NCBI GenBank assembly: GCA_965217585.1
Contig: OZ244561.1
Coordinates: 3,744,001 to 3,808,000 of the forward strand
Source: Candidatus Latescibacterota bacterium
GTDB lineage: Bacteria; Latescibacterota; UBA2968; UBA8231
Length of the DNA stretch: 64,000 nucleotides
Direction: 5' to 3'
The position numbers were made by a program, and so were the translations under genes. The notes below the pieces were generated by a model. That model was given only the letters and a program-made list of their open reading frames with translations, did not search any database and was not told where the DNA came from. Positions 8,202 through 39,999 of the stretch are shown in pieces; position 1 is the stretch's first letter; every line of letters starts with the position of its first letter.

Positions 8202-11087
8202 TTGAGTATGCGGTGGCCTATATCCATACTTCGATCTTTCCTCATAGGTGTGATGCTGGTTGGTGCCTTGGTATTTCCGGCGCAGAGTACTGCCCAGCCA
8301 CCAGAAGAGGGAGCCGAACCCACGGCAGGGAAGGGACACTTGCGCTTCCCTGGCTCGCCGTTCGCGGAGCCTGGCAGAGGCTTTCTCAACCGCGGAGTCT
8401 GGCAGGGTTATATAAACTACGGCATTGAACCTTACGAAACCTACACCGTCAGTACCCAGTCCTTCGAAGTTTACGACCGTCTGGGCAATCGGTTGCTGCG
8501 CGGCTATCCGCTCCTAACTTGGCAGGAGAATCGCTCAAAGGAACTCGACCTGCAGGAAAGCAGCATCTTCCGCTCCGCCCAGTACTGGCAGTGGTTCGAC
8601 AACCTCATAGTTTTCCAGGAAGCGCACAAGGGCTGGGCTGCCGGTTTATTCATAGGCGACAAAATCCGCACGACCCTCACTCCCCTCACCGTCAGCCGGC
8701 CGCGCTGGGACGGCCTCCGCCTTGATGCCCGCTCCGCATCCCATGGTTTGACCTTCCTGCTCACCCGGGGGCAGGCAAGGCGCTTTTCCACCTTCCAGTC
8801 GCGCAACGAAATCAATCCCATTCTGCAATACGGGGGACGGTGGTACTCCAGAATCGGCAAGGTGCTGACGGCCGGTTTTACCTTTTTCAACCAGCACCAA
8901 GCCGATATGCTGTCGGACCGGGGGAATTTACTGCGCGGCACCCTGCCCCGCGGCACGGAGGTGCCGACCACGATTTTCGTGCGGGTGCAGGACGACTCGC
9001 CGGAGGACGGGACCCCAGCGCAGGTGTACGCGCTGCACATCTACCTGAGGATTGTGCAGCCCAATGGAACGCGCACCACGCACACCTCGAATCCCGATGC
9101 CGGTCCTGGGGGCACCGAGTATATTCAGGATCTCAGACCCGTAGTGCTGCCCGGAGCGCGGCAGGTCGGAGATTACTACGAGGCCCGGGGCCCCGACGAG
9201 GTGGTGGATTTCGAATTCACCCTACCGCCAGGGGCGGTGGTGGATCGCGCCCGTTTCGAGGCCACGGTCGCCGGGGACTATCGGATCAGCGTGCGCCAGA
9301 AGCACCCCTTCTTCAACAGGGAATTGAGCGAACCAGACTGGGAGGAGCGACAGTGGCCGGCCAATCCCATAACTAGGCTGCACAACGTGGATGGGCGTCC
9401 CGGCTATCCGGTCGATTTCAAACCAGGCGAGACCGAGGCTTTTTTCATCCTCGTGCGCGCCAAAGGCAATCCCGCCACCCCCGGAGCCGATGCCCCTTCC
9501 GAGCAACCTAGGGTCGTTTCGTTTAAATACGGCATCCCCATCGGCCAGACCTTGATCGGGGCGGATTTTGCGATTGAGTCCATGGAGATGGTGGGCCGGG
9601 GAGAGCTGGTCTACAACTGGCAGGAGCACCAGTTCCCTCTCCACAGCGATTCCCTCGCGTTTGCGGGAAAGCACTTCGATACCAGCGCCCTGGCAGGATA
9701 CTTCACCCTCGTGAGGAATTTTGGCCCGCGTCTGCGCCATGGCGAAGTGGCGCTCGAAGTCTTCCGCATCGATCCCGATTACAGCGGCGGGTACGAGAGC
9801 CGGAGAGGGGGCGGGATTTTTTTTACGGACCAGGAGGGGGACTTCGAAACCGTGCGGCGGCAGCGGTTCTATTCCGGTTTTACCCAGGAGTTTGAACTGG
9901 TGGCCGACAACGACGACAATGACGATTGGCCCGACGACTGGCCCAAGGAGGAGGGCCGGTTCCAGCCATTGCAGCCGCAGGTGTACTCGGGTGCCAAGGC
10001 GCACTCGGGAGTGTTCCCGGGACTCGACGAGGACGGCGACAATAGCCCGGATACGGATCGCAACCGCAATGGGATCGCGGACTGGACCGAACCTTTTCTG
10101 CTTTACGACAGCGACCCGCCCGCCTTTGTCTACGGGATCGACTTCAACAACAACGGCATCCCCGACTTCCGCGAAAACGACGCCGAGCCCGACTATCCCT
10201 ATCGGCGCGACAGCAAGGGCTACCATGGCTTTGTCGCCGTCCCCGATCTGGTGCCTTTGTGCAAGCGCCTGACCATCGGCTATTTCTCGATCGGGCAGTT
10301 TGTCGGCGGGGGCGAAGCAAAGGGCCCCTACGCTCGCATCCAGCACCGCTCCCGTCCCCGGCGCTGGCTCGAAGTGGACTTTGACGACAATGTGAAGTAC
10401 GTGCGCGATAGCATCCGGGACGATGTCTACGTTTTCGACATAACACCGGAGGGTGTCAACTCGGGATCGGTGCTGAATCCCCCCCCTGCCGATCCGCTGA
10501 CCATGCGGAAAAGCATTGTAAACACCGGATTGCTCAGACTGGATTCGAGGCCGTGGCGCGATCGCAATCTCAGGCTGCAGGCGCAGATCTTGCATTTTAC
10601 CAACAAGCAACTGGAAGTGGAAGCGAGCGATGGGACGCGCCAGGAATCGGACCGCATCACCCGCCTGACATGGATCGGGCGCGCAGATTACGCCGTCGAC
10701 TGGGGCAAGTCGGATCTGTGGTTCGGGCTAAAATACCTAGCGCGGGAGGGAGACAAAGATAGCCTCGATGAGCCCGAATCCTCGCTGCGCTTCTTTACCC
10801 CCATCTTCCGGCTCAACTACCCGTTCATGGCCAATGTCTCCTTTCAGCTAGGCATGTCCGGTTTCGCCTGGCTGCCCATGCGCTATACCGACAACGTGGA
10901 CGAAGTCAACAGCTACGAGCAGAACTCGACCATCTTGATGATCACCAGTTCCACCGACGATTACCTCGGCTACAGCCTGTCGACCAGTGCGGGGATGCAG
11001 TGGCAGAAGATCGATTTTGACGCAAAAGAAAAATTTTTGGACTCGGATACCTTCGGGTTCTTCGTGGAAACCTTTGCCGGTTTTTAG
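8202..11087 (+). CDS. Exported protein, putative outer-membrane beta-barrel with Asp-rich insert (paralog 1 of 3)
   Basis: Signal peptide; amphipathic C-terminal strands ending FFVETFAGF; block DNDDNDDWPDD...GVFPGLDEDGDNSPDTDRNRNG...GIDFNNNGIPDFRENDAEPDYPY. Confidence 0.7.
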   Translation: MSMRWPISILRSFLIGVMLVGALVFPAQSTAQPPEEGAEPTAGKGHLRFPGSPFAEPGRGFLNRGVWQGYINYGIEPYETYTVSTQSFEVYDRLGNRLLRGYPLLTWQENRSKELDLQESSIFRSAQYWQWFDNLIVFQEAHKGWAAGLFIGDKIRTTLTPLTVSRPRWDGLRLDARSASHGLTFLLTRGQARRFSTFQSRNEINPILQYGGRWYSRIGKVLTAGFTFFNQHQADMLSDRGNLLRGTLPRGTEVPTTIFVRVQDDSPEDGTPAQVYALHIYLRIVQPNGTRTTHTSNPDAGPGGTEYIQDLRPVVLPGARQVGDYYEARGPDEVVDFEFTLPPGAVVDRARFEATVAGDYRISVRQKHPFFNRELSEPDWEERQWPANPITRLHNVDGRPGYPVDFKPGETEAFFILVRAKGNPATPGADAPSEQPRVVSFKYGIPIGQTLIGADFAIESMEMVGRGELVYNWQEHQFPLHSDSLAFAGKHFDTSALAGYFTLVRNFGPRLRHGEVALEVFRIDPDYSGGYESRRGGGIFFTDQEGDFETVRRQRFYSGFTQEFELVADNDDNDDWPDDWPKEEGRFQPLQPQVYSGAKAHSGVFPGLDEDGDNSPDTDRNRNGIADWTEPFLLYDSDPPAFVYGIDFNNNGIPDFRENDAEPDYPYRRDSKGYHGFVAVPDLVPLCKRLTIGYFSIGQFVGGGEAKGPYARIQHRSRPRRWLEVDFDDNVKYVRDSIRDDVYVFDITPEGVNSGSVLNPPPADPLTMRKSIVNTGLLRLDSRPWRDRNLRLQAQILHFTNKQLEVEASDGTRQESDRITRLTWIGRADYAVDWGKSDLWFGLKYLAREGDKDSLDEPESSLRFFTPIFRLNYPFMANVSFQLGMSGFAWLPMRYTDNVDEVNSYEQNSTILMITSSTDDYLGYSLSTSAGMQWQKIDFDAKEKFLDSDTFGFFVETFAGF

Positions 11088-11090
11088 CGC

Positions 11091-13919
11091 ATGTCCAATG
11101 CAGGCCACATTATCGCGGCAATCCTAGTCCTCGAACTGACGACGCTGGTTGGCATCTGCTCGTCCGCCCCTCCAGTCGACGAGGATCGCTTTATTCGCAA
11201 GGCACCGGCCTATCAGAATCTCGGCGTACGGGGATACGAGCGCTATCCCGAATTCACCCAACTCAGGCCGGTTTACAGCCGCATTGGAAGCTACGTGGGA
11301 CACGGCAGTTACCTGGTGCAATGGGACGAGATACGCGAGCGCTACATGGGGGAGAAGATGGAGGCGGGCAACAGCATGCTGGATACCCGGGCCCGGAGCG
11401 TCGTCTTCAAAGACGATCCGGGCCTCAACCCTTTCGGGGGGGTCTCCATGTCCCACGAAGGCTGGAAGGGACGCGGAGCTTCCTTCTTTGTGGGCCGAGG
11501 GCCCATAACCACCTTCAGTTCCCTGATTTTATACCACACGGACTTCAGCGGGGCCCGCATGGATTTTTCCCTGGCTTCCAACGACCTGACCTTGCTGTTC
11601 TCGCGCGGGGGGCTTTCGGAGCGCGGCAGCTTCACCGACTTCGACGGCACTACCAGCGGCATCGTCTCGACCAGTCCGGTGCTGCTCTACGGCGCCAACT
11701 GGCGCGGCAGCTTCGGAGCCCTCGACCTGGGCAGCACCTTCCTGCGCCAGGTTCAGTCGAGCCTCAAAGGGGATCGCGAGACCTTGTTCAGAGGCGATGT
11801 GCCCTACCCCGAGTTGCGCCAGCCCAAAACCATCACCGTGCGGTTTAGCGACGACTCTCCCCGGGATCCGTACGGCACCGCGGTCTACGAGGTGGAGGTC
11901 TTTGTCAAGGCCAGAGAACAAGACCAGATCTACACCAGTTCGAACGAGGCCACAGGTCCCGGCACGATCTACCGGGCCGACCTCGAGCCGGTAGTACCGA
12001 TCCGCAATGCCGGGGATCACTGGGAGGTACAGGGGGCGGGCGCGGCCATCGATTTTGTTTTTTCCCTGCCCGCGGACCTCGAGGCCGAGTGGGTCGAATT
12101 CGCCGCGACCGTGGCGGGCGACTACCGGATCGGGCTGCGCCAGATGCACGACTTTGAAAACCCCAGGTCGGGCGCGATCGAGCAGCGTTCGTGGCCCTCG
12201 CCTCCGACCCGCAACCGTTTCAATATCGACTTCAAGGACAATCCCTACGAAGCCGAGCCGTTCTACACGGTGAAACGAGCGGAGCGCACCCCGGCCCTGG
12301 ACGCAGAGCCCACTGTGGTGCGCTTCCAGCACGCCATCCCTACGGCGCAGACCTTCTACGGGGTCAACGGCCGGATCAATGCCGAAGCCCTTTTCGCAGA
12401 GGCTGAATTCGTCCTCAACCCTCAGGATTTCATCTTCCCGATCAAGGGGGGGAAGCGCCAGAGAGAACTCTCCTACGCCGGCTTCCTGACCCTGAAAAAG
12501 GACCTGAAGGGCATCGGGTTGGGGGCCGAACTCTACCGCATCCAGCCGACCTACGGAGGGTGGTACGACAGCCGGCGCGGCGGGGCGGTGTTCTTTTCCG
12601 ACCTGACTGGAGACGCGACCGCCGGAGAGGCTGCCAACCTCCAGGCTTCGACCCAGGAGTTCTCGCTCTACTCGGACAACGACGACCACGATCCCTGGCC
12701 GGACGACTTCGTGCCGGTGGATTTTCCCTACGTGCCCAAAGGCGCTTTTGAAGGGGTTGAATCTCTGGGCCCCCGCCCCGAAGCCGGTGTCTATCCAGGT
12801 CTGGATATGGACGGCGATCGGGTCTACGACATGGACCTCAACCGCAATGGAGTAGGGGACTGGTTCGAGCCGTTCTTCGCCTACGAAACCGATCCGCCGG
12901 AATTCGTCTACGGCATCGATTTCAACAACAATGGGATGCCCGATTTTCGCGAAAACGACAACGAACCGGACTATCCCTATCGGCGCGACCAGCGCGGCTA
13001 CCACCTCTTCTTTGATCTGAACAGGCGGCCCGACTGGCTGGACCGGGCGGCGGTGGGTCTGTACCGAGCGCGCGAGATCGCGGCGGGAGGGACCAGCCGG
13101 GGGCTCTACGCCCGGGTTGCGGCCCACGCCACCCTCTTGGGCGTTTCCCTGGGCTTGTTCGACGATATCAAGCGAGTCGAAGACGATATCGGCGACGATG
13201 TGTACCGCTTCGTGCTCACCAGCGATACGGATCTGTTCCGCCATTTCAACACCAGCGCCACGTTGCCGCCGCCCGATCCGTTGCTCATGCGCGACAGTGT
13301 GGTCAATACTCTGTTTTTGGAAACCCGCTACACTCCGTTGCGCTACCTAGAAATCGCCAACAACTTTAAATACCTAGTCAACCGGCGGGGAGAGGTACTG
13401 GATCGCCAAGAGGAATTCCTGCAGGATGGGCGCACCCTGCACAATTTCACTATGGTCAACAAGGCGCAGTACTTTCTGCAACCCTTCGAGGCGCTGCAGG
13501 TGGTCTTGCGGGCCAAGCACCTGCTGGTGAAGTGGGACGAGGAAAGCTACAACTTCAGGTACGTGATCTCCGCTCCGAGCGATACCTTGCTGGCCAATCC
13601 CAAGGCTTCGTGGTCGATGATCACACCCAGTTTGAAGGCGCGCTATCACCTCACGCCGCGCACCCGTCTGGAGTACGGCCAGGCCGGCTTTTTCATCCCG
13701 GCGCTGCGGGTTCGCTTCCACGACCGCGAGGACCCGGCCGCCAGTTATACCTCTAATATTTCCATCCTACAGTTGACCATGCAGGGGATTCACCAAGGGT
13801 ATGAGGTGACTACCAACGTCGGCGTGCGGCGAGAGCTGGTCAATTACGACGCGAAGGCAGAGCGCCCTAAAGAGCAATTCAGTGCCTTTTTCGCCGATGT
13901 GGTATTCGGGCTGGAGTAG
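11091..13919 (+). CDS. Exported protein, putative outer-membrane beta-barrel with Asp-rich insert (paralog 2 of 3)
   Basis: Same collinear motifs as paralog 1 (DDSP, AGDYR, SRRGG, DNDD, GIDFNNNG, EPDYPY); ends FFADVVFGLE. Confidence 0.7.
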   Translation: MSNAGHIIAAILVLELTTLVGICSSAPPVDEDRFIRKAPAYQNLGVRGYERYPEFTQLRPVYSRIGSYVGHGSYLVQWDEIRERYMGEKMEAGNSMLDTRARSVVFKDDPGLNPFGGVSMSHEGWKGRGASFFVGRGPITTFSSLILYHTDFSGARMDFSLASNDLTLLFSRGGLSERGSFTDFDGTTSGIVSTSPVLLYGANWRGSFGALDLGSTFLRQVQSSLKGDRETLFRGDVPYPELRQPKTITVRFSDDSPRDPYGTAVYEVEVFVKAREQDQIYTSSNEATGPGTIYRADLEPVVPIRNAGDHWEVQGAGAAIDFVFSLPADLEAEWVEFAATVAGDYRIGLRQMHDFENPRSGAIEQRSWPSPPTRNRFNIDFKDNPYEAEPFYTVKRAERTPALDAEPTVVRFQHAIPTAQTFYGVNGRINAEALFAEAEFVLNPQDFIFPIKGGKRQRELSYAGFLTLKKDLKGIGLGAELYRIQPTYGGWYDSRRGGAVFFSDLTGDATAGEAANLQASTQEFSLYSDNDDHDPWPDDFVPVDFPYVPKGAFEGVESLGPRPEAGVYPGLDMDGDRVYDMDLNRNGVGDWFEPFFAYETDPPEFVYGIDFNNNGMPDFRENDNEPDYPYRRDQRGYHLFFDLNRRPDWLDRAAVGLYRAREIAAGGTSRGLYARVAAHATLLGVSLGLFDDIKRVEDDIGDDVYRFVLTSDTDLFRHFNTSATLPPPDPLLMRDSVVNTLFLETRYTPLRYLEIANNFKYLVNRRGEVLDRQEEFLQDGRTLHNFTMVNKAQYFLQPFEALQVVLRAKHLLVKWDEESYNFRYVISAPSDTLLANPKASWSMITPSLKARYHLTPRTRLEYGQAGFFIPALRVRFHDREDPAASYTSNISILQLTMQGIHQGYEVTTNVGVRRELVNYDAKAERPKEQFSAFFADVVFGLE

Positions 13920-13924
13920 GAACC

Positions 13925-16726
13925 ATGGGCAAAAGTACATGGCAGTGGAAAGTGTTGCAGGCTCTGCTGGGAGTAGCCGTACTGGTCTCCCTAGCCCAGA
14001 GCCAGAGACTGACCCGTGCCGCGCCCGACCGCGGGTTCCTGCACGTGGACAACCCCATTGGTTACCAGAGTTATGCCCTCGAACCCTATGTGCTCTATCC
14101 CTCTTACACGCGCCGGGTGCCGCGCTACGATCGCATGGGCAATTTTCTCACGGTGGGCGAGTTGGCCTACTCGGTGGACGAGGCGCGTCCGGGGCTCAGT
14201 CAGTTCGGGGGCGTGGCGCGCGGCCTGTACGCCCAGCAAATCACGCTCAATTATTCGGTCCAGCGGGACGCCTACAAAGGCGCCGGTTACAGCCTGATGT
14301 TACTGACCGCCAACCCGAACCTGGATGCCCGCCAGCTAGCCGAGGGAGTCCGCACTCGCTTTTCGCCTCTGACCCTCAACACCACCCGCTTCGCCGGGGT
14401 GCGGTTCGATATGCACGGGCTCCGCAACCAGTCCACCTTCATATACAGCCGCGGGGCAGCCGACCGGCTGCGCTTTTCGTTCTTCGCTCCCGGCCGGGAT
14501 GAACGTTCCCCGGTGATCCTCTGGGGCGGCCACTGGCAAAGCTCGATCGGTGCGGCCCTGAAAATAGGCACGACCTTCGTGAACCAGCACCTCACTGATA
14601 CCACAGTCAAGGAGGGCAGCATCTTCCGGGGCAACCTGCCCTACCAGATGCTGCCGCCCAAGAGGATATACGTGCGGGTGACCGATGACTCGCCGGGGGA
14701 TCCGGAGACGGCCGCGGCGGTGTATTCGGTAGCCGTGGTAGTCCACGGCTCCGATGCGGATGGAACCTCCCGCGTCTTGACCAATGACCCGGCCCTCGCC
14801 GGGGAGGGCATCGAGGTCGAGGCGGATATACAGCAGCGCTTTGTCGCTGGCCGGCGGGTCGGAGACCACTACGAGGCCCGCGGCGGGGATGAAATTATCG
14901 AGGTGGAATTCACCATGCCGGGAGACTTCGCGCCCCACAGAGCGGAATTCGTGGCTTCCATGGCTGGCGACTACAGGGTTGGGGTGCGCCAGGTGCATGA
15001 TTATATCAAGGAAGGCAGAACCACGGCGACCGAGAGTTCGTGGCCGGCCACGGCCAACCCGGTCCACTTCGAACGGGCCTTTCTCACCCGGTTCGACCCG
15101 CGCTATCCGACCGATTTCAAGTTTCCCGAACAGGACCCGGTCTACACTGTTCTGCGCGCCAAGGGCAATCAAGGCGACCTGTCCCAGCCCAAGACCTTGC
15201 GCTTCATCTACGGCATGCCCACGGCCCAGACCCTAGCCTCGCTCGATTTCGCCTTCGAGTACCAGGGTTACACCATGGATGGAGAGGTGGCCCTCAACGT
15301 CCAGGACTTCCGCTTCCCGGCGGTGGGGGGCGAGCGCAGCAACCAAGACTACACCGCCTATTTCCTGAAGGGTTCGGGTCCCGTTCCCTTCTTCCCGACC
15401 CGTTTCCGTCTCCAGCTCGGGGCCGAGGTCTTCGCTTTGCCTGCCGCCTACAGCGGCGGCTACGACTCCAAGCGGGGCGGGGCGATCTTCTTCACCGATG
15501 TCGCGCCTTCTCCGCCCGGGGCTCTGACCCAAGAGTTCAACCTCTACGACGACAACGACGACGGCGACCAGTGGCCCGACGAACACCCTAATGACAGCGC
15601 TTTCTCGGAGATCAACGACGCCGGCGTATTCCCGGGCCTGGATGAAGACGGCGACAATATCATCGACACCGACCGCAACGCCAATGGCAGGCCGGACTGG
15701 ACCGAGCCTTTTCTCTTCTTCCACACCGATCCTCCCGAGTTCATCTACGACGTGGATTTTAACAACAATACGCTGCCGGATATGACGGAAAACGATGACG
15801 AGCCGGACTATCCGTATCGCCGGGGCCAACGCGGTTTCCACGGCTTTGTGGATTTTCCCGCTCTGTTCAGGGGCTTAGAGCGCTTGGCTTTCGGACTCTA
15901 CAGGACCGAAGATCCGCGCGCGGGACTCGAAAGCGTGGGACGCTATGTTCGGCTCGACGCGCGCTACACCCATTCCACCTGGGGCTACATCGCTGTGACG
16001 GACGTGTTGAAATGGGTGGAGGACGACATCCCCGATGCCAGCTACATCTGGCAGGTGAGCGACGATCCGACGGTCAATATGCTGGTGGTGCAGAGCAAGG
16101 AGAGGGCCACGGAGGGAGCCCTGCTCGACCTGGTGCCCCCCCGGCCCGATCCCATGCTGATGCGCAACAGCATGGTCAACACTTTGTACATTGAGAGCTT
16201 TTTGACGCCTCTTCCCGGCTTGGCGGTGAAGGGGCGCAACAAACTGGTGCTCAACCGGCGGCACGATGACGAATTCGAGGATGGCAGCAGCCAGAAAAGC
16301 GGCACCGTCCTGCGCTGGACCCTGTCCAATCGCGCCGAGTACACCTACCCGGTGCGGCACAATCTGGTGGCGGGCGTAAGAGCCAAGCACCTGTTCCGCT
16401 GGGATCGGGGTTTCGGCGCTGCCGAGCAGGTGCGCTTTTCCACGCTGGGACCCAGCGCCGACCTCAGCCTGCAGGTGTCGCGCCGCGCGCAACTGGTGCT
16501 GGGACAGGAGGGATGGCCCTTGCTGCCCTTCCGCTTTACGGATCTGTCGGAAAGCGCCAACAATTACCGCCAGCGGACCACGCTGGCGCTGGTGCGGGTG
16601 GACTGGGATTACTGGGGCTGGAAGATGACGGTGGAGAGCGGGATGCAGTGGCAGTCGCGCAAAACAAAGGCCGAGAAGGAACTGGGGGAGAGGACCTTTT
16701 TCCTAGAGGGTTATGTCGGCTTCTGA
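13925..16726 (+). CDS. Exported protein, putative outer-membrane beta-barrel with Asp-rich insert (paralog 3 of 3)
   Basis: Same motifs; ends FFLEGYVGF (terminal Phe). Confidence 0.7.
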   Translation: MGKSTWQWKVLQALLGVAVLVSLAQSQRLTRAAPDRGFLHVDNPIGYQSYALEPYVLYPSYTRRVPRYDRMGNFLTVGELAYSVDEARPGLSQFGGVARGLYAQQITLNYSVQRDAYKGAGYSLMLLTANPNLDARQLAEGVRTRFSPLTLNTTRFAGVRFDMHGLRNQSTFIYSRGAADRLRFSFFAPGRDERSPVILWGGHWQSSIGAALKIGTTFVNQHLTDTTVKEGSIFRGNLPYQMLPPKRIYVRVTDDSPGDPETAAAVYSVAVVVHGSDADGTSRVLTNDPALAGEGIEVEADIQQRFVAGRRVGDHYEARGGDEIIEVEFTMPGDFAPHRAEFVASMAGDYRVGVRQVHDYIKEGRTTATESSWPATANPVHFERAFLTRFDPRYPTDFKFPEQDPVYTVLRAKGNQGDLSQPKTLRFIYGMPTAQTLASLDFAFEYQGYTMDGEVALNVQDFRFPAVGGERSNQDYTAYFLKGSGPVPFFPTRFRLQLGAEVFALPAAYSGGYDSKRGGAIFFTDVAPSPPGALTQEFNLYDDNDDGDQWPDEHPNDSAFSEINDAGVFPGLDEDGDNIIDTDRNANGRPDWTEPFLFFHTDPPEFIYDVDFNNNTLPDMTENDDEPDYPYRRGQRGFHGFVDFPALFRGLERLAFGLYRTEDPRAGLESVGRYVRLDARYTHSTWGYIAVTDVLKWVEDDIPDASYIWQVSDDPTVNMLVVQSKERATEGALLDLVPPRPDPMLMRNSMVNTLYIESFLTPLPGLAVKGRNKLVLNRRHDDEFEDGSSQKSGTVLRWTLSNRAEYTYPVRHNLVAGVRAKHLFRWDRGFGAAEQVRFSTLGPSADLSLQVSRRAQLVLGQEGWPLLPFRFTDLSESANNYRQRTTLALVRVDWDYWGWKMTVESGMQWQSRKTKAEKELGERTFFLEGYVGF

Positions 16727-16741: not shown

Positions 16742-19700
16742 ATGTTTGCTTTGTTTGTTCTGATGGTGGGGCTGACGCTGGTAGGCGGGGGACTCACCCG
16801 TTTCAGCCTCACGGTCGACGAGATCAAGAGTCGCTTCGACCTGGCGCAGAAGTACTACGCGGCCAAGGACTACGAGAACGGGGTCACCATTTTCAAGGAA
16901 ATCGTCGAAACCCCCAATCGCGTCATTCTCGAGGTGGATACCATCACGGTGGAGATTGACGATCTCGTACTGCCGGTGCGCATCGCAGCTACCTACCAAG
17001 TGGGCAATAGCCTGCGCAATGTGGGGCTCGACCTGCTGGCGCGCTCGAATTCGGCGCGGGAAGAAGGCGATTCCCTGCTGGCGGAACAGCGGCGGGGAGA
17101 GGCCCTCGAGGCCCTCAAGGCAGCCCGCGAACACTTTTCCGCGATTGTGGCCGACGCAGGCGTGCCGCGCAATGTGCGGGTAATGTCCCAGTACCAGACT
17201 GTGCGGGTAACCTATGCCATGGAGGACTTTCCGGGCGTGGTCGAAGAAGTGGACCAGTTGTTGAGGCAGTTTCCGGGCAACCCGTACGAGGAAGCCGCGC
17301 TTTACGATCTGGGCTGGTCCTACTTCAGGATGGAGGATTACCTCAATTCGATCGCAACCTTCGAACGCGTCCTGGAACGGTCTGCGGATGCTGTGCGCCT
17401 AGATCGCGCTCTTTTCCAGATTGCGGAGGCCCATAGCGCGCTGGCGGCTTATCCAGAAGCTCTGTTCTGGTACCAGAAGCTGGTGGACAAGTACGATTTT
17501 TCCACATTGTCTGCCAAGGATCTCAGGGCCATGCAGACCGCGAAAATCCGGGGGGTGGTACAGGAAACCACGCGCGAACTAGTGGCCAAAGCCCAGATCA
17601 AGCTCGGGGATACCTATGCTCTCCAGGGGCGAGAGGAACAGGCTATCACAGCCTATTCCCTGGTGCCCCGGCGCTACCCCCAGGAAGTGTTTCTCGTCGA
17701 GCAGTCCTACACCCGTCTGGCCCGGCTGATCTTGGAGCGGCGCGGCCTAGATGAAGGGATCAGGGCGTACGAACAGGCCATACAAAGTTCCGCTCGCAAG
17801 GAATTCCAGGCCACCACGCAACTGCAGATTGCCCGCCTGCTCTTCGAAGCGCGGCGCTTCCAGAAGGCCATCATGGCATACCGGGTCTATCTGAAAGCCT
17901 ATGGAGGGGTGGCCCGCATAGTCGGATTTACCGAGGAGAAGGTGATTTTCAAAATCGCTGAGGCCCATCGCGAGCGGGGTCTGGAGATGCTGAAAGAGGA
18001 TGGCGGGGGCGCGCAGGGCGAATTCGAGAACGCCCTGGCGCACTACGACTCCCTGCTGGCGCAGTACGGAGCCAGTCCCCTGACGCCGGATGCCAAGTTC
18101 GGCAAGGGGGTGTGCTATCAGGGCCTCAAGCGGCCGGATTCCGCTCTAGTGTTTTTCCAGGATCTGGTCGAATCCCATCCATCCCACCTAGCTGTTCCCA
18201 GTGCCCTGCTGCAGATCGGCCGCTTGCTCTACCAGGCCGGAGCTTATCCCGGCGCAGCGGTGACCTACGAGCGGCTTATCGCCCAGTACCCGCAATCCGA
18301 ATTGATCGACGATGCGCGCGTGGAACTCGGGGTGGTCTACAAAGCCCAGGAGCGCTTGGGCGAGGCCGTGGTGATTCTCCAGCAGGTCAGCCGCGACTCG
18401 CCCAACTGGGTGAAGGTGCGGGTAGAGATCGGCGATATGCTGACGGCTGCCGGCCGTTACGAGGAGGCGCAGGATGAGCTGGACGGAGCCATAAGCTTGG
18501 CCGGAGACGATTCGGAAGCCATGGCCGCATTGCAGTACATCAAAGGAAAAATTGCCTATTCGCAGAAGAAGTACGCCGAGGCCCTGCCCGCCTTTGGCCT
18601 GGCCATCGACACCGCCGCCAATCAACAGATCATCTCCAGCGGGTTGTTCCTGCGCGGCCTGGCCCACTACGAAGTGGGCCGCCGGATGGATGCGGCCGGC
18701 GACAGCCTCGCCGGGACCCGGAACTTCGAACGTTCCACTCAGGACATGCGCCGGTTGCTGGAGGTAGATATCTCGCTACAGATGCGGAACATCGCCTACC
18801 GGACCCTGGGTACGGCCATGACGCGGCTGGGCCGCTCCGAGGAGACCATAAGGTATTATGCGGAACTCATCGCCAGCACCACCGATGCCCAGGAGCGCGT
18901 GGGGTTCGAACTGCTGCTGCTGGAGCTTTACTACGACCAGCGGCGCTTTGAGGAGGCCATCGAGGTGGGTGAGAAGTTGATACGGGAGGACTTTGAGGAC
19001 AATGACGAGATGGGCTATTTCCTCGTGGAGCGCGCCTACTCGATTCTGGCTTCGGCCCAACTGGAGCGCAAGCGCTATGCCGAGGCCCTAGCCGCCGCGG
19101 GTGTGGGACTGTCCAGGTACCCGCGTTCGGGAGAGCGCGCGTCCATGGCCTTTGTGATCGGCCTGGGACACTACTTCCTCCAGCAATATGCCGAGGCCGT
19201 TGCGGGCTTTGTCAACTACGTCGAGCAATTCCCCCGCGACAGGAGGCAGCTAGAGGGTTGCTACTACGCTGCGCAATGTTATCAAATTCTCGGCGAGTAC
19301 GGGAAAGCAGCGACCTGGTTCCGCAGGGTACTCGATCAATTCGGGCCTTCGGAATACGCGTCGGAAGCCCTCTTCCTCTGTGCCGAGAACCTCTACAATG
19401 CCCTGCAGTTCGAGGCGGCCCTGAACACCTATGAAGAATTGCTCGCCGACTTCCCGCACAGCGAGTATGCCGACGACGCCATGTACTCCTCGGCCTGGGC
19501 GCTCTTCGAATTGAAGAGGATGGAGGAAGGGGTGCAGCGCATGGAGCAATTGGTAGCCGGATTTACCCGCAGCATGCACGCGCCGAGGGCGCAATTCACC
19601 ATAGGCGATTATTACTACAGCATCAAGGATTACCGCAGAGCCCAAGAAGGGTATCGGAAGCTGGTGGATCTGTCTCCGGAGAGCCCCGAGGCCGGCCGGG

Positions 19701-20002
19701 CTGGGGAACTTATCATCGAGCTGGACGAGGAAATCGCCAGCCAGATTTACGACCGGGCCGTCGAGCACTACCAGCGGCAGGATTACCGCAAGGCCATCCA
19801 GCTCTATCAGGAGATTGCCGCGCAGTACCCCGCGACTTACACGGCCTTTGCGGCGCTGGGCAATATGGGGGTGGCGCTCGAAGACATAGGTGAGAAACAG
19901 CAAGCTGAACAGGCCTATAAACAGGTTATTGCGCGGGCCGGAGGTGATCCTGCATACGGGGAAGTCGTGGCCTTTGCCCGAGCCCGCTTGGGACACTTAT
20001 AG
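16742..20002 (+). CDS. Large exported TPR protein (BamD/CpoB-like repeats)
   Basis: 1086 aa, N-terminal hydrophobic segment, many TPRs with YP.S/FP.S turns (e.g. ALYDLGWSYFRMEDY, AQFTIGDYYYSIKDY). Confidence 0.85.
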   Translation: MFALFVLMVGLTLVGGGLTRFSLTVDEIKSRFDLAQKYYAAKDYENGVTIFKEIVETPNRVILEVDTITVEIDDLVLPVRIAATYQVGNSLRNVGLDLLARSNSAREEGDSLLAEQRRGEALEALKAAREHFSAIVADAGVPRNVRVMSQYQTVRVTYAMEDFPGVVEEVDQLLRQFPGNPYEEAALYDLGWSYFRMEDYLNSIATFERVLERSADAVRLDRALFQIAEAHSALAAYPEALFWYQKLVDKYDFSTLSAKDLRAMQTAKIRGVVQETTRELVAKAQIKLGDTYALQGREEQAITAYSLVPRRYPQEVFLVEQSYTRLARLILERRGLDEGIRAYEQAIQSSARKEFQATTQLQIARLLFEARRFQKAIMAYRVYLKAYGGVARIVGFTEEKVIFKIAEAHRERGLEMLKEDGGGAQGEFENALAHYDSLLAQYGASPLTPDAKFGKGVCYQGLKRPDSALVFFQDLVESHPSHLAVPSALLQIGRLLYQAGAYPGAAVTYERLIAQYPQSELIDDARVELGVVYKAQERLGEAVVILQQVSRDSPNWVKVRVEIGDMLTAAGRYEEAQDELDGAISLAGDDSEAMAALQYIKGKIAYSQKKYAEALPAFGLAIDTAANQQIISSGLFLRGLAHYEVGRRMDAAGDSLAGTRNFERSTQDMRRLLEVDISLQMRNIAYRTLGTAMTRLGRSEETIRYYAELIASTTDAQERVGFELLLLELYYDQRRFEEAIEVGEKLIREDFEDNDEMGYFLVERAYSILASAQLERKRYAEALAAAGVGLSRYPRSGERASMAFVIGLGHYFLQQYAEAVAGFVNYVEQFPRDRRQLEGCYYAAQCYQILGEYGKAATWFRRVLDQFGPSEYASEALFLCAENLYNALQFEAALNTYEELLADFPHSEYADDAMYSSAWALFELKRMEEGVQRMEQLVAGFTRSMHAPRAQFTIGDYYYSIKDYRRAQEGYRKLVDLSPESPEAGRAGELIIELDEEIASQIYDRAVEHYQRQDYRKAIQLYQEIAAQYPATYTAFAALGNMGVALEDIGEKQQAEQAYKQVIARAGGDPAYGEVVAFARARLGHL

Positions 20003-20016: not shown

Positions 20017-20766
20017 GTGGGACAAAGACTAGGGCAGATTTGCGTTTGGGTTATCGCGGGCGCGGCCGTCCTCTTGCAGTACGGGTGTCTGACTCCTTTG
20101 GGTGCCGTGTACCACGTGGGTATGACGCCCCGGCTCGAGGTGGACGAAGGTTTTAGCATCGATCCGGTCGACGATGCCCTAGTGTTCAGCAAAGAGGGCC
20201 TGCAGGTCAAGGTGCGCTACCAGACCGATGGAGAGTTGAAATTCGAGATCCCCGGCCCTGAAAACCCGTATGTGTTCGAGGAAGTCGACTCTAGGCTGGG
20301 GTACCGGCCCAAGGCCTTCACGGTCTTCCAGGTCGAGGTGGTCAATCCCACCTTTGCCAAGGTCCGCCTAGATCCGGAGAAGGCCGCCTTGATCACCGAC
20401 CAGGGCAAGAGATTGGACAGTTATGCCATCAACCGCACCGATGCCAGAGGAGGGGTGCGCAACTTCGAGGCCTATTTCCTGGCCCGGGGAGTGCAAACGG
20501 GCAATGCCCAGAAGGTCTATCTGGAGCGCATGGGCAAGGTCCGCGAGACCATCTACCACCGCGATTCGCCGGTCTTCAAGGGGAGAACCTACAGCGGCAA
20601 AATCATCTTTGCAGCTATTCCCCCCGAGACCAAGCAGGTGGAGCTGGTTCTCTACGATTTCATCCTCGGCTTTGGCATCGACGACGAACCCACCGAAAGG
20701 GTTACCTTGCGATTTCCATTTTCCGTGGACCAAGGCGTGCGGAAATCCCCAACAGAAAGGAGGTGA
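20017..20766 (+). CDS. Hypothetical exported protein, possible lipoprotein
   Basis: Hydrophobic leader ending in imperfect lipobox LQYGC; RBS GAGGAG; beta-rich body. Confidence 0.65.
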   Translation: MGQRLGQICVWVIAGAAVLLQYGCLTPLGAVYHVGMTPRLEVDEGFSIDPVDDALVFSKEGLQVKVRYQTDGELKFEIPGPENPYVFEEVDSRLGYRPKAFTVFQVEVVNPTFAKVRLDPEKAALITDQGKRLDSYAINRTDARGGVRNFEAYFLARGVQTGNAQKVYLERMGKVRETIYHRDSPVFKGRTYSGKIIFAAIPPETKQVELVLYDFILGFGIDDEPTERVTLRFPFSVDQGVRKSPTERR

Positions 20767-20870
20767 TGTACAGTGCTTTGGTGGTTTCAGGGTGGGAATC
20801 ACAGGGAAGTTACTCTACACGAGGTAGAGGAGAACAACAGAAACACTCACTTTTTGGAGGAGGAATCATC

Positions 20871-21848
20871 ATGAGACGAATGCTCGTTTTGAGCTTGGGT
20901 GCATTGCTGGCATTCAGTGCCGTGGCTTTCGCCCAGGTTTCGAACAGTGCCCTGCAAGACGGCACCGAGTACATGGCGTTGATAGGACTCAGTGGCAAGC
21001 ACGATGTGCCCTACACCGACAGCCCGCCTACCCTCGACGGAGAGCTGTCACCAGGGGAGTGGGAAAACTACTTCTTTGTGGAGTTCGGCCCCTCTACCCT
21101 AGCCATGTGGGGCGATCAGATCGGCTACAAGAGGAACGACCCGGGTCAGGTCGTGGCCGATGGCCTAGTGAGCCAGCTGATCGAACACGCCGGCGGGTCG
21201 GAAGATCCGGCTGAAGTCGCTACCGACGCGGATCTGTATACCTTCACTTGGCAGGCCTGGGACGAGGAATACCTCTACGTCGCCGTAGACGTGACTGATA
21301 ATATCTACGACGTGGTGGGTACCCAGGACGGGGGTTACTGGGAGCGCGACGGATTTTTCATGGAGATCGACTTTCTCAACTCCCTCGGAAACGGTGCAGA
21401 CGCGGGGCCGGGCATGACTGCGCTAGCGTTCTCAGCCATGCCCATAGACAGCCAGCGGTATTCCATTACGTCCTGGAATTTCGGCATGTTCAGCACCGGC
21501 GGATCCGAGAATTTCACCTTCTTCTACGGTGACGACCCGGATCTGTTCATGGGTACCTCCAGCGCTTTCAGCCTTACCGATGTGGGCTATATCCTCGAAA
21601 CCCGCTCGTCCTGGGCCCACATGACGCGGCTGGTCCCCGAGGGGTTTTCGATCTTCAGCGGGTGGAACTTCGGCAACAGCTACCACATCCTCGACCCGGA
21701 TGGGGGCGGTGGCTATGGCGGCCAGTTCCAGTACGGCCGCAACGGGGATCCTTCCGATACGGGTGGATTCGCCCGCTGGAACTTGGTGGGCGGTTCCGTT
21801 ACAGCTATCGAGGCCACCACCTGGGGAGCGCTGAAGGAAACGTTCTAG
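20871..21848 (+). CDS. Secreted CBM9/DOMON-like sugar-binding protein with C-terminal TWGALK tail
   Basis: RBS GGAGGAGG before ATG 20871; signal peptide ending AFA; PTLDGELSPGEW, WDEEYLYVAVDVTD, WERDG, GYILE; ends TAIEATTWGALKETF. Confidence 0.75.
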   Translation: MRRMLVLSLGALLAFSAVAFAQVSNSALQDGTEYMALIGLSGKHDVPYTDSPPTLDGELSPGEWENYFFVEFGPSTLAMWGDQIGYKRNDPGQVVADGLVSQLIEHAGGSEDPAEVATDADLYTFTWQAWDEEYLYVAVDVTDNIYDVVGTQDGGYWERDGFFMEIDFLNSLGNGADAGPGMTALAFSAMPIDSQRYSITSWNFGMFSTGGSENFTFFYGDDPDLFMGTSSAFSLTDVGYILETRSSWAHMTRLVPEGFSIFSGWNFGNSYHILDPDGGGGYGGQFQYGRNGDPSDTGGFARWNLVGGSVTAIEATTWGALKETF

Positions 21849-21970: not shown

Positions 21971-23269
21971 ATGAGAGAAAAATTCGGGGTACTGCCTTCG
22001 TACTACCGGGAATTCGCCATCGGGATTGCGCTGTCCTTGGGGCTGCACTTGGGGGTTATGGGGCTTTACAGCCTGCTGCAGGAAAAGGTCGAGGAGGTGA
22101 TTCAGCGCATCACCTTTGAAAAGCCCCCGCCGCCCGGTTTCTTTGTAAAACCCCCGACTGCAACCACAAAGGTCCTGGAATTTCGCAAAGTGCCCGTGCC
22201 CCAGGGTCACTTTCTGCGCCAGAGGACGCAGACCACCACGCAGACGAGGGTGGAACAGGTGCAGGCCTTAGCCGCGCTGCGGACCGATGCAGTGGTGGAG
22301 CAACTAGAGGTGGCGGAGGTGACGCCGGCGGTGATGCGGCACCAGGGACGCTTGGGGGTGCGCGGGGATGTCGGGGCCGTGGCCAGAGGTATGGTGGGGC
22401 TGGGCCTTCCCGAACCAGCGCTGCAGGTGGCCGCGGTACAGGGGGTGAAAGAGGCGCGACACCAGGTGGACATGCAGCTAGACATGCTGAGCGTGAAGCA
22501 CCTAGATACCGGCCAGTACCAGGCCATGGTCATCCAAGATCCCAACCAGCGCCGCAAGGTGAAAGGGTTCCTGCACATTGCCCAGGCATACAGCGTGCAC
22601 TATACCCTCACCAACCACACGGATGTGACTTTGCCGCAATTGGACGTGCTCATCAAAACCCTGAAGGAGTACACCGGTATTGAAGCCGATTATGTAGGAT
22701 CTATTCCCCTGGCCGATCCGCAACTTTTGCAGATTCCCTGGTTGCTCCTGACCAAAGTATCCAGTCGCGACATAGGTGATGTAGAACTAGAAAACTTGGG
22801 GCGCTATCTGGCCGGCGGTGGGTTCGTCCTGAGTACCCTTTCCGCCAACAGCGGCTCGAATGCAGTGCTCAAGCGCAAGACGGGTATTTTCGATATTTTG
22901 CGTCGGGCCATGAAAACACAGGCCCTGAACGAGGGAGCGGACTGGCGCTTTGTGGTTCTCGAATCGGACCATCCGATCTACCACTCCTTCTTCGATTTCG
23001 ACACCTCGGTACGCGCCAATCAGATGAGTCAGCATTCGGAAGCCAATCCCCTGCCCAAAGATCTGGGACTCGAGATCGGAGAGCGCCTAGCGGTTTTTCT
23101 CAACTCCGGTCCCCAGGTAGAAGGTGGAAGGGGCAGTCTCGGAGAACAAAGTACCCATCAGGTGAAAGCCGATGCCACGCGGGCATTGCAATTCACGCTC
23201 AACACCATTGTATTCGCGCTCACTCAGGAGGGCTCAGTGACCCAGCAACTCATGACTGGTGTGCGATAA
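21971..23269 (+). CDS. DUF4159-type protein with TonB-like N-terminus (TM with SxxxH, Pro-rich linker)
   Basis: TM ALSLGLHLGV, then EKPPPPG..KPP..; C-terminal domain with NLGRYLAGGGFV, DHPIYHSFFDF, NTIVFALT typical of DUF4159. Confidence 0.7.
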   Translation: MREKFGVLPSYYREFAIGIALSLGLHLGVMGLYSLLQEKVEEVIQRITFEKPPPPGFFVKPPTATTKVLEFRKVPVPQGHFLRQRTQTTTQTRVEQVQALAALRTDAVVEQLEVAEVTPAVMRHQGRLGVRGDVGAVARGMVGLGLPEPALQVAAVQGVKEARHQVDMQLDMLSVKHLDTGQYQAMVIQDPNQRRKVKGFLHIAQAYSVHYTLTNHTDVTLPQLDVLIKTLKEYTGIEADYVGSIPLADPQLLQIPWLLLTKVSSRDIGDVELENLGRYLAGGGFVLSTLSANSGSNAVLKRKTGIFDILRRAMKTQALNEGADWRFVVLESDHPIYHSFFDFDTSVRANQMSQHSEANPLPKDLGLEIGERLAVFLNSGPQVEGGRGSLGEQSTHQVKADATRALQFTLNTIVFALTQEGSVTQQLMTGVR

Positions 23270-23325: not shown

Positions 23326-25302
23326 ATGGAAAAGGGGATTACACTGCGGGCCCTGATTGCGGGGGTCTTCATGGCTGCTGCCATCGGGGCTGGAGCCGCC
23401 TATGAAAACCTGATGATCTCCGGCTCCACCATGAATTTCGATTACAGCATGGGCGCGGCCATTTTCTTTTTTGCGCTGTTCGTGCTGCTGGTCAACCCGG
23501 CACTGAGGCGCGTCCATCCGTCCTGGTCTTTCAGCCGCAGTGAACTGGCGACCCTGTACATCATGGCCATGGTGGCCTGCGTGCTGCCCACCAATGGCTT
23601 GGTCGGATTGTTGATTCCGGCTATTTCGGGAGGAAGCTATTACGCGACCCCGGAGAACAACTGGCTCGAATACATAATACCCAATATCGAGCCGGGATTA
23701 CTGGTCGTGGATTCGCAGGGCATCAAGGGATTCTACGAAGGCCTGTCCGAAGGCGAATCAATCCCGTGGGGTTTGTGGTTCCAGCCTTTGCTCTACTGGT
23801 CGATGCTGCTAGTGGGTTTCTTCGGCACCGTGATCGCGCTGATGCTTCTGCTACGCCGCCAGTGGGTGGTCAACGAACGCCTGCTCTATCCACTGGTACA
23901 GGTGCCCATCGCCATGATCGGCGAGGAAAGCGGGGTCCGGATTGGAAGCACGCCCTTGTTCAGGCGGTGGATGTTCTGGGGGGGCGTGATGATTCCGGTT
24001 TTGATGTACAGTCTAAAAGCGCTGCACAACTACTACCCGGCCGTCCCGATTGGGTTGCCGACATTCATACACGTGGGTTTTGCCAACGATGCCGTGGTGA
24101 TACCCTTCGGGATCAATTACGCCGGTATTGGTTTCGGTTATTTGCTGACCACCAAGCTGAGTTTTTCGATATGGGTGATAGCCTTGATGACCATAATCGA
24201 AGAAGTCGTTTTGATGCGGATTGGACTGTTCAGCAGCGAGCGCTTGATATACAACACCAGCCCGGCCGTTTATCCGGCCTACCAAGGGGTGGGTGCCTTG
24301 CTGGTGTTTTCCCTTTTTGTGATCTGGATGGCTCGGTCTCATCTGCGCGAGGTGTTCTACGTGGCCTGGAAGGGAAAAAGAAGAGAGAGCGTGGAAGAGT
24401 CCGGTAACAGTGAATATGGGAGGAAAAGGGAGGATGAGATTCTCTCCTATCGTTCCACCTGTGTGTTACTGCTGCTGAGCCTGATGTTGATGACCGGCTG
24501 GCTGGTGGGCGTCGGGTTGAGTTGGTGGGCGGCCATCCTCTTTATCGTGATATTCTTCTTGATGATGCTCGGAATCACCCGCATCGTGGTAGAGGGAGGG
24601 CTGGCCGTAAGCCGGATTCCAATCATTCCGAGCGATGTTGTGGTGGGTGTGGTCGGGAGTGGCAACCTCGGAGCGGCCAACCTCGGGGTCCTAGGGTTGA
24701 CCTTTCCATGGGCGGGCGAGATGCGCACCTCGGTGATGGCGGCTCTGGCACACGGTTTGAAGCTGGTGGAAATTCACGTCAAGAAGCAGCGCCAGCGCCT
24801 GATCCTGGCCGTGGTTCTGGCCATCGGTATATCCATCGGCTGCGCTGCCTTTACCATGCTGCTCCTGGGATATAGCTACGGGGCGATCAACCTGAGCGCG
24901 CACTGGTTTTTCGGCAGCACGGCCGGAGGGCGGGTCTTTGATTTTATCGCCTACCACCTCGCCCAGGACAGCGGGCCCCGGTGGGATAGCCTAAGCTTTG
25001 TCGGAATAGGCGCAGTAATTCAGTTGTTGTTGATGCTGGCCCACCAGCGCCTGACTTGGTGGCCGCTGCACCCGCTGAGTTTTCCGATCGGGGCTATCTG
25101 GTGTACCCATCAGGTGATGGCCAGCATGTTGATCGCCTGGGTGGCAAAGACGACGGCTCTGCACTACGGGGGGGGGCGGCTCTACAATACCACCAAACCA
25201 CTTTTCTTGGGTTTGATTCTCGGACAGTACCTCACTGGAGGACTCTGGCTCATAATCGATGGATTCACGGGTAAACAGGCGAATTACCTGTTCTTCTGGT
25301 GA
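23326..25302 (+). CDS. DUF6785/DUF6784-type polytopic membrane protein (putative permease)
   Basis: 658 aa; YYATPENNW, RRQWVVNERLLYPL, WWPLHPL. Confidence 0.8.
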   Translation: MEKGITLRALIAGVFMAAAIGAGAAYENLMISGSTMNFDYSMGAAIFFFALFVLLVNPALRRVHPSWSFSRSELATLYIMAMVACVLPTNGLVGLLIPAISGGSYYATPENNWLEYIIPNIEPGLLVVDSQGIKGFYEGLSEGESIPWGLWFQPLLYWSMLLVGFFGTVIALMLLLRRQWVVNERLLYPLVQVPIAMIGEESGVRIGSTPLFRRWMFWGGVMIPVLMYSLKALHNYYPAVPIGLPTFIHVGFANDAVVIPFGINYAGIGFGYLLTTKLSFSIWVIALMTIIEEVVLMRIGLFSSERLIYNTSPAVYPAYQGVGALLVFSLFVIWMARSHLREVFYVAWKGKRRESVEESGNSEYGRKREDEILSYRSTCVLLLLSLMLMTGWLVGVGLSWWAAILFIVIFFLMMLGITRIVVEGGLAVSRIPIIPSDVVVGVVGSGNLGAANLGVLGLTFPWAGEMRTSVMAALAHGLKLVEIHVKKQRQRLILAVVLAIGISIGCAAFTMLLLGYSYGAINLSAHWFFGSTAGGRVFDFIAYHLAQDSGPRWDSLSFVGIGAVIQLLLMLAHQRLTWWPLHPLSFPIGAIWCTHQVMASMLIAWVAKTTALHYGGGRLYNTTKPLFLGLILGQYLTGGLWLIIDGFTGKQANYLFFW

Positions 25303-37441: not shown

Positions 37442-37453
37442 ATCAAACCTCGT

Positions 37454-39689: not shown

Positions 39690-39999
39690 ACACCACTTTT
39701 CCCTCTTGTAGTGCCGGTTTGATGACCAACGCATGGCTATCCTTGTAGCGTTCTACATCTGTCGGCGAGACTAGAATCGCGTCAACCGCGACGCGCACGC
39801 CGTACATCTTCTCGTAAATCTGAGCCCTGAGATTTGCGTCGCCGCCCTCCTTGATGATTAGGAGATCTACATCGCTGTTCCGCGTCATGCCGCCTCGGGC
39901 GGCGGAGCCGAAGAGTATAATCCGCTCCGGCTGCGCGACCTCTACGACACGCCGGATGATGTCATCTAGGGTCTTCTGATCAAGCACTTGTTTTTTCAC
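39676..39999 (-). CDS. Minimal nucleotidyltransferase (MNT) antitoxin
   Basis: LFGSAARG...SDVDLL; GTG start overlaps the upstream stop. Confidence 0.88.
   Translation of the reverse strand: MKKQVLDQKTLDDIIRRVVEVAQPERIILFGSAARGGMTRNSDVDLLIIKEGGDANLRAQIYEKMYGVRVAVDAILVSPTDVERYKDSHALVIKPALQEGKVVYEAA

Follow-up and report, generated by a model that had tools for sequence, protein, structure and literature searches.

Three adjacent genes in a 64,000-nucleotide (nt) stretch of the genome of a Candidatus Latescibacterota bacterium (GenBank assembly GCA_965217585.1, contig OZ244561.1, positions 3,744,001 to 3,808,000; hereafter the window, of which the first letter is position 1) encode divergent paralogues of an unnamed protein family, which we label BarA, BarB and BarC. 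Our best reading, held with moderate confidence, is that they are giant outer-membrane barrels with a metal-stiffened surface loop, and that they form part of an uptake complex coupled to the proton motive force. We have filed the Bar proteins as a new family of a known kind, the outer-membrane barrel, with an unusual architecture. The three genes are as follows.

8202..11087, + strand: BarA, paralogue 1, 961 amino acids (aa) from TTG at 8202; member of its own orthologue clade of 13 sequences
11091..13919, + strand: BarB, paralogue 2, 942 aa, with the C-terminus ...VVFGLE; member of its own orthologue clade of 12 sequences
13925..16726, + strand: BarC, paralogue 3, 933 aa, with the C-terminus ...YVGF; the copy used for the structure model

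In the list of open reading frames (ORFs) all three lie on the + strand, with gaps of only 3 nt between BarA and BarB and 5 nt between BarB and BarC, and they are real genes, probably co-transcribed. For BarA the ATG at 8208, with a Shine-Dalgarno-like AAGGAAG 6 nt upstream, is a likelier start than the listed TTG at 8202. The products are collinear from end to end, with 36% and 38% identity to BarA for the other two (BLASTP of BarA against BarC: E = 4e-149, 341/951 identical), which agrees with the three collinear, divergent tandem paralogues described in an earlier note on this DNA. Their N-termini are hydrophobic and signal-like, with plausible cleavage sites as judged by eye. BarA terminates in ...TFAGF, and thus, as had also been noted, two of the three proteins end in Phe, with BarB lacking a terminal aromatic residue.

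The most distinctive part of these proteins is an acidic block of about 100 residues, found in all three paralogues within a few bases of where the earlier note had estimated it, and including in each copy four short loops, given here for BarC.

9882..10208, + strand: acidic block of BarA, residues 561-669, net charge -19
12651..12986, + strand: acidic block of BarB, residues 521-632, net charge -20
15527..15823, + strand: acidic block of BarC, residues 535-633, net charge -25
15554-15589, 15641-15676, 15671-15706 and 15755-15790, + strand: the four EF-hand-type loops of BarC, residues 544-555, 573-584, 583-594 and 611-622

Each block holds 18-21 Asp residues, for a net charge of -19 to -25. 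Pairwise identity between paralogues is 64-65% inside the block (68/106, 64/99 and 63/99) versus 33-35% in the remainder of the proteins, and 57 of 115 alignment columns are invariant in all three copies inside it, versus 152 of 934 outside. The earlier note had described a motif of the DxDxDG type; the EF-hand-type loops stand, but only one of the four reads DxDGD, and the recurring unit is instead [DN]x[DN]x[DN]x-hydrophobic-P-D, set in 12-residue loops that occur four times per paralogue. A strict version of this unit, [DN]x[DN]x[DN]x[IVLMFWY]PD, has six matches in the six-frame translation of the window (127,996 aa), two in each Bar protein and none elsewhere. Across 111 family sequences, Asp or Asn at loop positions 1, 3 and 5 and Asp at position 9 are found in 97-100% of members in all four loops, and Glu at position 12 in 96% (loop III) and 99% (loop IV) versus 1% in loops I and II; Gly is the majority residue at position 6 of loops III and IV, and positions 7-9 read hydrophobic-Pro-Asp. 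Many Asp, Asn, Pro, Gly and aromatic positions of the block are 90-100% invariant. Residues 541-640 of BarC are also the best-conserved stretch among 138 full-length members collected by unbiased searches (column conservation 0.60-0.67 versus a mean of 0.42), and the first motif is matched by 135 of the 145 proteins of at least 700 aa in the unbiased-search set, a number that includes two unrelated neighbour proteins (P0004 and P0208).

Oxygen-ligand residues are therefore present in four loops at the EF-hand-type spacing of 1, 3, 5 and 9, with position 12 added in loops III and IV. This pattern makes the metal-binding role that the earlier note had proposed plausible, and from it we infer that the acidic loop may bind about four Ca2+ or other divalent cations and take up a defined shape only with metal. 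The loops resemble a motif, DxDxDG[IV]PD, known from thrombospondin type 3 repeats and from the calcium sites of some toxins, and share with EF-hand-type DxDxDG calcium loops the spacing of ligand positions 1, 3, 5, 9 and 12, four times over. They differ from both EF-hands and thrombospondin type 3 repeats in having no flanking helices and no cysteines, with Asn largely in place of Asp.

Searches with whole Bar proteins against Pfam and NCBIfam gave nothing at E<=1, and no Plug/TonB_dep_Rec, SLH or OstA/LptD domain. PDB sequences searched with a full-length profile (46 sequences) or with a profile of the block alone (74 of the 111 segments) gave nothing at E<=10, and the 30 clusters nearest to BarC in the ESM Atlas are all without a Pfam family; the nearest Pfam-bearing cluster there, DUF6029 at 0.88, is a mere lead. 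These searches bear out the earlier statement that no member has been characterised, and our literature search found no paper on the family. In the accessible portion of PMC4454575, a 2015 analysis of Latescibacteria single-cell genomes, mention is made of Plug-domain receptors and non-specific porins only. A separate idea of dockerin-type docking was dropped as unsupported, the same portion of that paper making no mention of dockerins or cellulosomes.

Homologues are numerous. A word-indexed search recovered 52, and HMMER against 1.84 billion representatives recovered 430 matches at E<=1e-3, including 119 at E<=1e-30; all names attached to them are "hypothetical protein". We collected 64 genome loci carrying 118 family ORFs. 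Almost all loci are labelled Latescibacterota or Handelsmanbacteria, with some Gemmatimonadetes, a few given only as 'bacterium' or 'uncultured bacterium', one Planctomycetota, and one Pirellulaceae label among the homologues; judged from these labels, the family appears nearly confined to the Latescibacterota. The records labelled Gemmatimonas phototrophica, Gemmatimonadaceae, Gemmatimonadetes/Gemmatimonadota or Planctomycetota (L001, L008, L010, L019, L020, L029, L034, L047, L050 and L052) have genes that group with the Latescibacterota ones, and they may possibly reflect mislabelling or mis-binning of metagenome-assembled genomes (MAGs).

In a FastTree phylogeny of 111 full-length copies, BarA, BarB and BarC each belong to a clade of their own (13, 12 and 13 sequences), in which every genome is represented by one copy. 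All three genes occur in identical order in nine loci, and eight more show two adjacent members in the same order up to the contig ends; no other order was found. Because of the three separate clades and the constant gene order, the triplication is older than the sampled lineages. That all three paralogues were retained speaks for non-redundant roles; it would also fit a hetero-oligomer, which the three may form.

Structure prediction was carried out with AlphaFold2 for the whole of BarC with 46 homologues (model 1), and for BarC residues 236-665 with 111 sequences (model 2). Model 1 has a mean predicted local distance difference test score (pLDDT) of 76.7 and a predicted template modelling score (pTM) of 0.75, and is almost all-beta, with long paired strands; before the first strand it holds only the signal helix and a short unstructured N-terminus. 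A Foldseek search of the PDB with this model returned 103 matches at E<=1e-3, with outer-membrane barrels in the lead. At the top stand Deinococcus SlpA/SDBC (8agd, 8.3e-10; 7zgx, 1.4e-9; 8ae1, 7.8e-9) and MtrB (6r2q_B, 1.8e-9), followed by LptD entries from 3.4e-7 and then many TonB-dependent receptors and porins, including BtuB, FemA, FpvA, PfeA and RagA at E 6e-7 to 1e-4. We take these matches to favour the class of very large outer-membrane barrel and no particular architecture within it. The same search against viral structures gave seven matches at E<=1e-3, generic barrel and tail-protein noise only. The C-termini are of the kind expected for a beta-signal, in that the final residue is F, Y or W in 85 of 111 family members, following a last strand of the FFxExxxGF type; by clade, the terminus is aromatic in 13/13 BarC sequences (F or Y), 4/13 of BarA and 0/12 of BarB. 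BarA and BarC of the window thus carry a C-terminal beta-signal with an aromatic end, and the BarB clade is the exception. Together with the signal-like N-termini, these predictions support the large barrels proposed in the earlier note, and the analysis yielded neither a confident match to a known family nor a barrel-free model, the two outcomes which that note had named as counting against it. The reading given in the note is on the whole reasonable, with a plug or docking role of the block and a hetero-oligomer as possibilities.

The barrel of the model is interrupted by a second inserted domain, which the earlier note had missed, as it had the conserved operon context of TPR, ExbB/ExbD and CBM9-like genes set out below.

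14630..15049, + strand: Ig-like beta-sandwich inserted in BarC, residues about 236-375; the aligned regions begin at 8937 in BarA and 11793 in BarB

In model 2 the mean pLDDT of the sandwich, in blocks of ten residues, is mostly 90-98, with 79-86 in the first and last blocks. Foldseek with model 2 gave no matches at E<=1e-3 and no barrels, only weak matches to DUF4425 (1.4e-3) and the fimbrial subunit MyfA (3.6e-3). Because the sandwich is predicted confidently and its weak matches are Ig-like, we read it as a probable Ig-like domain inserted in the barrel. The plug of ushers is located in a periplasmic turn; a usher-like plug was considered for the sandwich and rejected, the sandwich coming, by our strand phasing, after an odd-numbered strand and so on the surface side, and no usher being among the Foldseek matches listed. 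The acidic block has a pLDDT of 37-54 and hardly any predicted secondary structure, even with 111 sequences, and a metal-dependent fold would explain the failure of AlphaFold2 on so conserved a segment.

In known barrels, periplasmic turns alternate with surface loops. Along the 13 C-terminal wall strands of BarC, turns of 2-6 residues (standard deviation of length 0-0.6) alternate with loops of up to 47 residues (1.3-6.2), with a single exception, the connection at 663-668, which has four residues and is length-invariant, yet stands in loop phase. Counted from the C-terminus, the acidic block falls in the variable-loop phase, and the sandwich, which comes after the ninth strand counted from the N-terminus, is likewise in surface phase. 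The counts from the two ends reconcile, at 28 strands, only if the PSPPG break at 528-532 is a turn between short strands. By our own count the predicted barrel would therefore have about 28 wall strands. Since this count depends on PSPPG being a turn, a position of the acidic block on the cell-surface side is our best inference and not a result.

The gene run continues past BarC with small gaps to about 33451, and includes the following genes, several of which recur beside Bar members elsewhere. We refer to the arrangement of the window as module 1.

16742..20002, + strand: 1086-aa TPR protein, hydrophobic at the N-terminus and separated from BarC by 15 nt; Pfam TPR, with repeats that also score on the YbgF and BamD NCBIfam models
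20017..20766, + strand: 249-aa protein of no family, with an N-terminal hydrophobic segment ending ...LLQYGC; adjoins Bar members in 42-43 of 64 loci
20763..21848, + strand: secreted CBM9-like protein (CBM9_1, E 1.3e-4, 22.3 bits versus a cut-off of 23.4); orthologues in 39 of 64 loci
21971..23269, + strand: DUF4159 protein, membrane-anchored at the N-terminus; present downstream where a module-1 locus extends far enough
23326..25302, + strand: DUF6785+DUF6784 polytopic membrane protein; linked to the module in L002, L004, L008, L011, L012, L015, L028 and L033
25367..26053, + strand: ExbB/TolQ, operon member
26067..26480 and 26517..26921, + strand: ExbD/TolR, two genes, operon members
26935..28563, + strand: SurA/PrsA-like peptidyl-prolyl isomerase (PPIase); a PPIase adjoins the module in L004, L011, L012, L015, L023, L028 and L033

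The SurA-like PPIase is followed by a protein of 734 aa that fits no known family, then by a second TPR protein and finally by an oxidoreductase. The TPR gene lies directly 3' of BarC in 12/12 related loci that extend that far, and the 249-aa gene directly after the TPR gene in 9/9 loci that reach there; ExbB/ExbD stand beside module 1 in the window, L011 and L023. PDB sequence searches with the 734-aa, CBM9-like and 249-aa proteins gave nothing significant, and the ESM Atlas gave nothing usable for the 249-aa protein. The orthologue of the CBM9-like protein in L016 scores 38.6 bits on CBM9_1 (E 1.4e-9). The listed GTG start of the CBM9-like gene (20763) overlaps the preceding gene, and the signal-peptide-like MRRMLVLSLGALLAFSAVAFA opens at Met37 (20871), where the match to the L016 orthologue also begins; the start is likely this Met37, at 20871. 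Literature searches found only the Pfam paper for DUF4159, and no paper mentioning DUF6785. The window holds three DUF6785+DUF6784 polytopic membrane proteins within its 64 kb, at 2136-4088 (- strand), 23326-25302 (+ strand) and 49778-51697 (- strand), one of them beside a GH32 glycoside hydrolase (53352-54908) and PhyH-type dioxygenases, and DUF6785 may be an expanded transporter family.

A second arrangement, module 2, was found in 27 loci, with the order CBM9-like, Bar, 249-aa-like, three further genes, Bar, TPR, ExbB, ExbD, ExbD and 249-aa-like; ExbB-ExbD-ExbD follow the TPR gene in 25 of the 27. Both modules occur in the same MAGs, e.g. L004 with L046 and L009 with L049. The three conserved genes between the barrels of module 2 (L016 6758-9912, and about 28-32 other loci) encode proteins of 216, 552 and 286 aa, and the C-terminus of the 552-aa one is FlgD_ig/CHU_C-like, a feature of sorting domains in type IX secretion. 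A third module, more distantly related (24-29% identity), contains three or four Bar members in tandem (L056 3580-11597; L059 3795-12760), followed in L059 by a TPR protein, DUF4159 and a 249-aa-like gene.

From these elements we propose the following explanation. Each Bar protein would be a very large outer-membrane beta-barrel interrupted by an Ig-like sandwich and an acidic loop of roughly 100 residues, and the metal-bound loop would provide, on the cell surface, a rigid lid or a platform for docking, placed above or inside a wide pore. The paralogues would have been kept 1:1:1 since before the sampled lineages split, in non-redundant roles and possibly as a hetero-oligomer. Their operon partners would be the periplasmic 1086-aa TPR scaffold, the small anchored protein, the secreted CBM9-like protein, DUF4159, DUF6785, SurA-like chaperones and an ExbB-ExbD-ExbD motor, and the whole could carry out proton-motive-force-coupled uptake across the outer membrane of large substrates, possibly glycans. 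We favour an energised uptake complex because of the recurring link with ExbB-ExbD-ExbD, TPR, carbohydrate-binding-like and polytopic membrane proteins, a link of gene neighbourhood only.

Such a complex would be analogous, and not homologous, to TonB-dependent and SusCD systems. The likeness to TonB-dependent, SusC and RagA transporters lies in the Foldseek matches, the ExbB/ExbD linkage, and the nearby carbohydrate-binding-like protein and candidate inner-membrane transporter. TonB-dependent and SusC-type transporters have 22 wall strands, and the Bar proteins differ from them in the larger predicted number, in the absence of a TonB in the vicinity, and in the position of the sandwich, which appears in a surface loop and not at the N-terminus. 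Because they have no Plug or receptor domain, the Bar proteins are not TonB-dependent transporters. LptD and MtrB are large two-component barrels of 26 strands; here too there are Foldseek matches, and a possible counterpart to the pairing of barrel and small partner in the 249-aa protein beside the module-2 barrel, a genomic pairing only, but the Bar proteins have no LptD/OstA family match and no multihaem partner, and their neighbours are not LptE.

Several points weigh against the uptake reading or parts of it. With regard to the fold, the TM-scores of the Foldseek matches are low (0.14-0.26, with root-mean-square deviations of 18-28 A). Strand count and sidedness were derived solely from DSSP strings and loop-length statistics over 111 sequences, and if 521-537 is taken as one strand the count becomes 27, an odd number with which no barrel that has its two termini in the periplasm could close. 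With regard to the block, the statistics over 111 sequences are biased towards block-bearing members, the patterns of the genome scan having been drawn from the block and its flank; the loops match no curated Pfam calcium-binding family (EF-hand, thrombospondin type 3, dockerin or Excalibur), and in a Pfam scan of the blocks alone at E<=10 the only match was Excalibur for BarA (E 0.24, 12.2 bits versus a cut-off of 22), with zero matches for the BarB and BarC blocks; and Pro at loop position 8 is atypical for EF-hands. With regard to the complex, the clades of the FastTree phylogeny are stated without support values; the two Bar copies of module 2 are separated by other genes, and a fixed heterotrimer is therefore not general to the family; the CBM9 match of the window protein is just under the Pfam cut-off; no Plug domain, TonB-dependent-receptor domain or TonB partner (TonB_C) was found among the window genes scanned; and ExbB/ExbD could serve other receptors, their adjacency being unrelated.

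The alternative that survives best, which we think unlikely though well short of negligible, is that the Bar proteins are a structural scaffold and not a transporter, i.e. abundant envelope organisers whose lumen is filled by metal-stabilised insertions, namely the sandwich and the acidic loop, and which tie the outer membrane to the TPR protein, in place of an SLH/coiled-coil stalk, or anchor a surface layer. The SlpA structures, as the best Foldseek matches, point in this direction. According to the available portion of PMC9388160, SlpA of Deinococcus radiodurans is a homotrimer of 30-stranded barrels in which pore insertions and the subunit interface are held by Asp-coordinated metal, and a role as scaffold rather than pore is suggested. 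The Bar proteins are like SlpA (8ae1, 7zgx and 8agd) in being very large single-chain barrels, as predicted, with a C-terminal end like a beta-signal and long insertions, probably stabilised by metal here too, and a YbgF-like TPR protein, TolQ/TolR-like genes and SurA-like chaperones are typical envelope-maintenance company. However, they have no detectable sequence similarity to SlpA, no SLH domain and no coiled-coil stalk, and the TM-score to SlpA is only 0.17-0.18. SlpA is moreover a homotrimer from one gene, in contrast to three ancient paralogues, and its insertions are described in that same portion of the paper as lineage-specific and variable, whereas the acidic loop is the conserved core of the Bar family and its most conserved part. 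A conserved partner of the CBM9-like kind, together with the presence of several modules in each genome, also looks more like substrate handling.

The energised uptake reading can be drawn in a more specific form, in which a heterotrimer of barrels of about 28 strands would capture large substrates with its surface Ig-like domains and four-site calcium loops, and a TPR scaffold with an ExbB-ExbD2 motor would open the complex with neither Plug nor canonical TonB; in all this detail we consider it quite unlikely to be correct.

Decidedly improbable, in our judgement, is that the acidic block is not a metal site at all and is instead a flexible polyanionic loop for cationic ligands, basic partners or mineral surfaces, or that it lies in the periplasm and contacts the TPR protein or cell wall. 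A pLDDT below 55 in both models and the lack of matches to calcium-binding families fit a flexible loop, but it is unusual for a disordered linker to be the best-conserved part of a family, as this block is here, and the 1-3-5-9(-12) spacing, repeated four times, also counts against it. A periplasmic block would follow from N-terminal strand parity with 521-537 as a single strand, and runs against the way short turns and longer loops succeed one another along the C-terminal strands, which puts the block outside.

Lastly, there is at most a slim chance that the barrels and the large TPR protein are the outer-membrane end of a secretion or exopolysaccharide export route (in the TPR-plus-porin logic of AlgK/AlgE, BcsC and PgaA) or of a type IX-like translocon for surface proteins, as might be suggested by the 1086-aa TPR protein immediately after the barrels and the TPR genes of both module types, by weak scores of its repeats on PorW/SprE (94.5 bits versus a cut-off of 250), by PgaA and BcsC among the weak matches of the second TPR protein and by the FlgD_ig/CHU_C-like C-terminus of the module-2 protein, since every TPR match is far under its family cut-off and reflects generic repeats, no synthase, glycosyltransferase, Wza/Wzc, PorK-N or SprA homologue was found among the window genes scanned, and motors of the ExbB/ExbD type are classically associated with import and with upkeep of the envelope.

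Elsewhere in the window, a defence-like island extends over 34148-43265 (- strand). It includes an HmaC-like AAA+ protein of 1097 aa (PADLOC E 1.1e-76), a 190-aa protein of no assignment, a PDC-M07A/AAA_21-like ATPase, a HEPN protein, a weakly HEC-01B-like protein and a HEC-01A-like ATPase, and is closed by a DDE transposase (42264-43265); the GC content is 0.54 at 38-42 kb versus about 0.60 elsewhere. The ORFs 478-2628 and 2136-4088, both on the - strand, overlap by about 490 nt, and because of this overlap the SurA-like PPIase encoded by the first probably starts downstream of its first possible start codon. A 185-aa ORF at 47429-47986 (- strand) matches only positions 2-63 of the 168 of a sigma-54 interaction domain and is possibly a regulator gene that has been truncated.

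The envelope of the Latescibacterota, a widespread and uncultured group, is known from gene lists alone. Comprising no fewer than 430 sequence clusters, and present several times in each genome, the Bar family is probably a major component of their outer membrane that has been invisible to annotation. It offers a candidate four-site metal-binding module, of a new sequence type and highly conserved, and an example of a predicted giant barrel with two inserted domains, while the conserved set of TPR, ExbB/ExbD, CBM9-like, DUF4159 and DUF6785 proteins supplies a testable common context for domains of unknown function. Hundreds of proteins now called "hypothetical" would be annotated by a Pfam or NCBIfam model derived from these alignments. 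If the more specific, heterotrimeric form of the energised uptake reading is true, the Bar proteins would constitute a new, phylum-specific class of energised outer-membrane transporter, present as several modules per genome in the manner of polysaccharide-utilisation loci.

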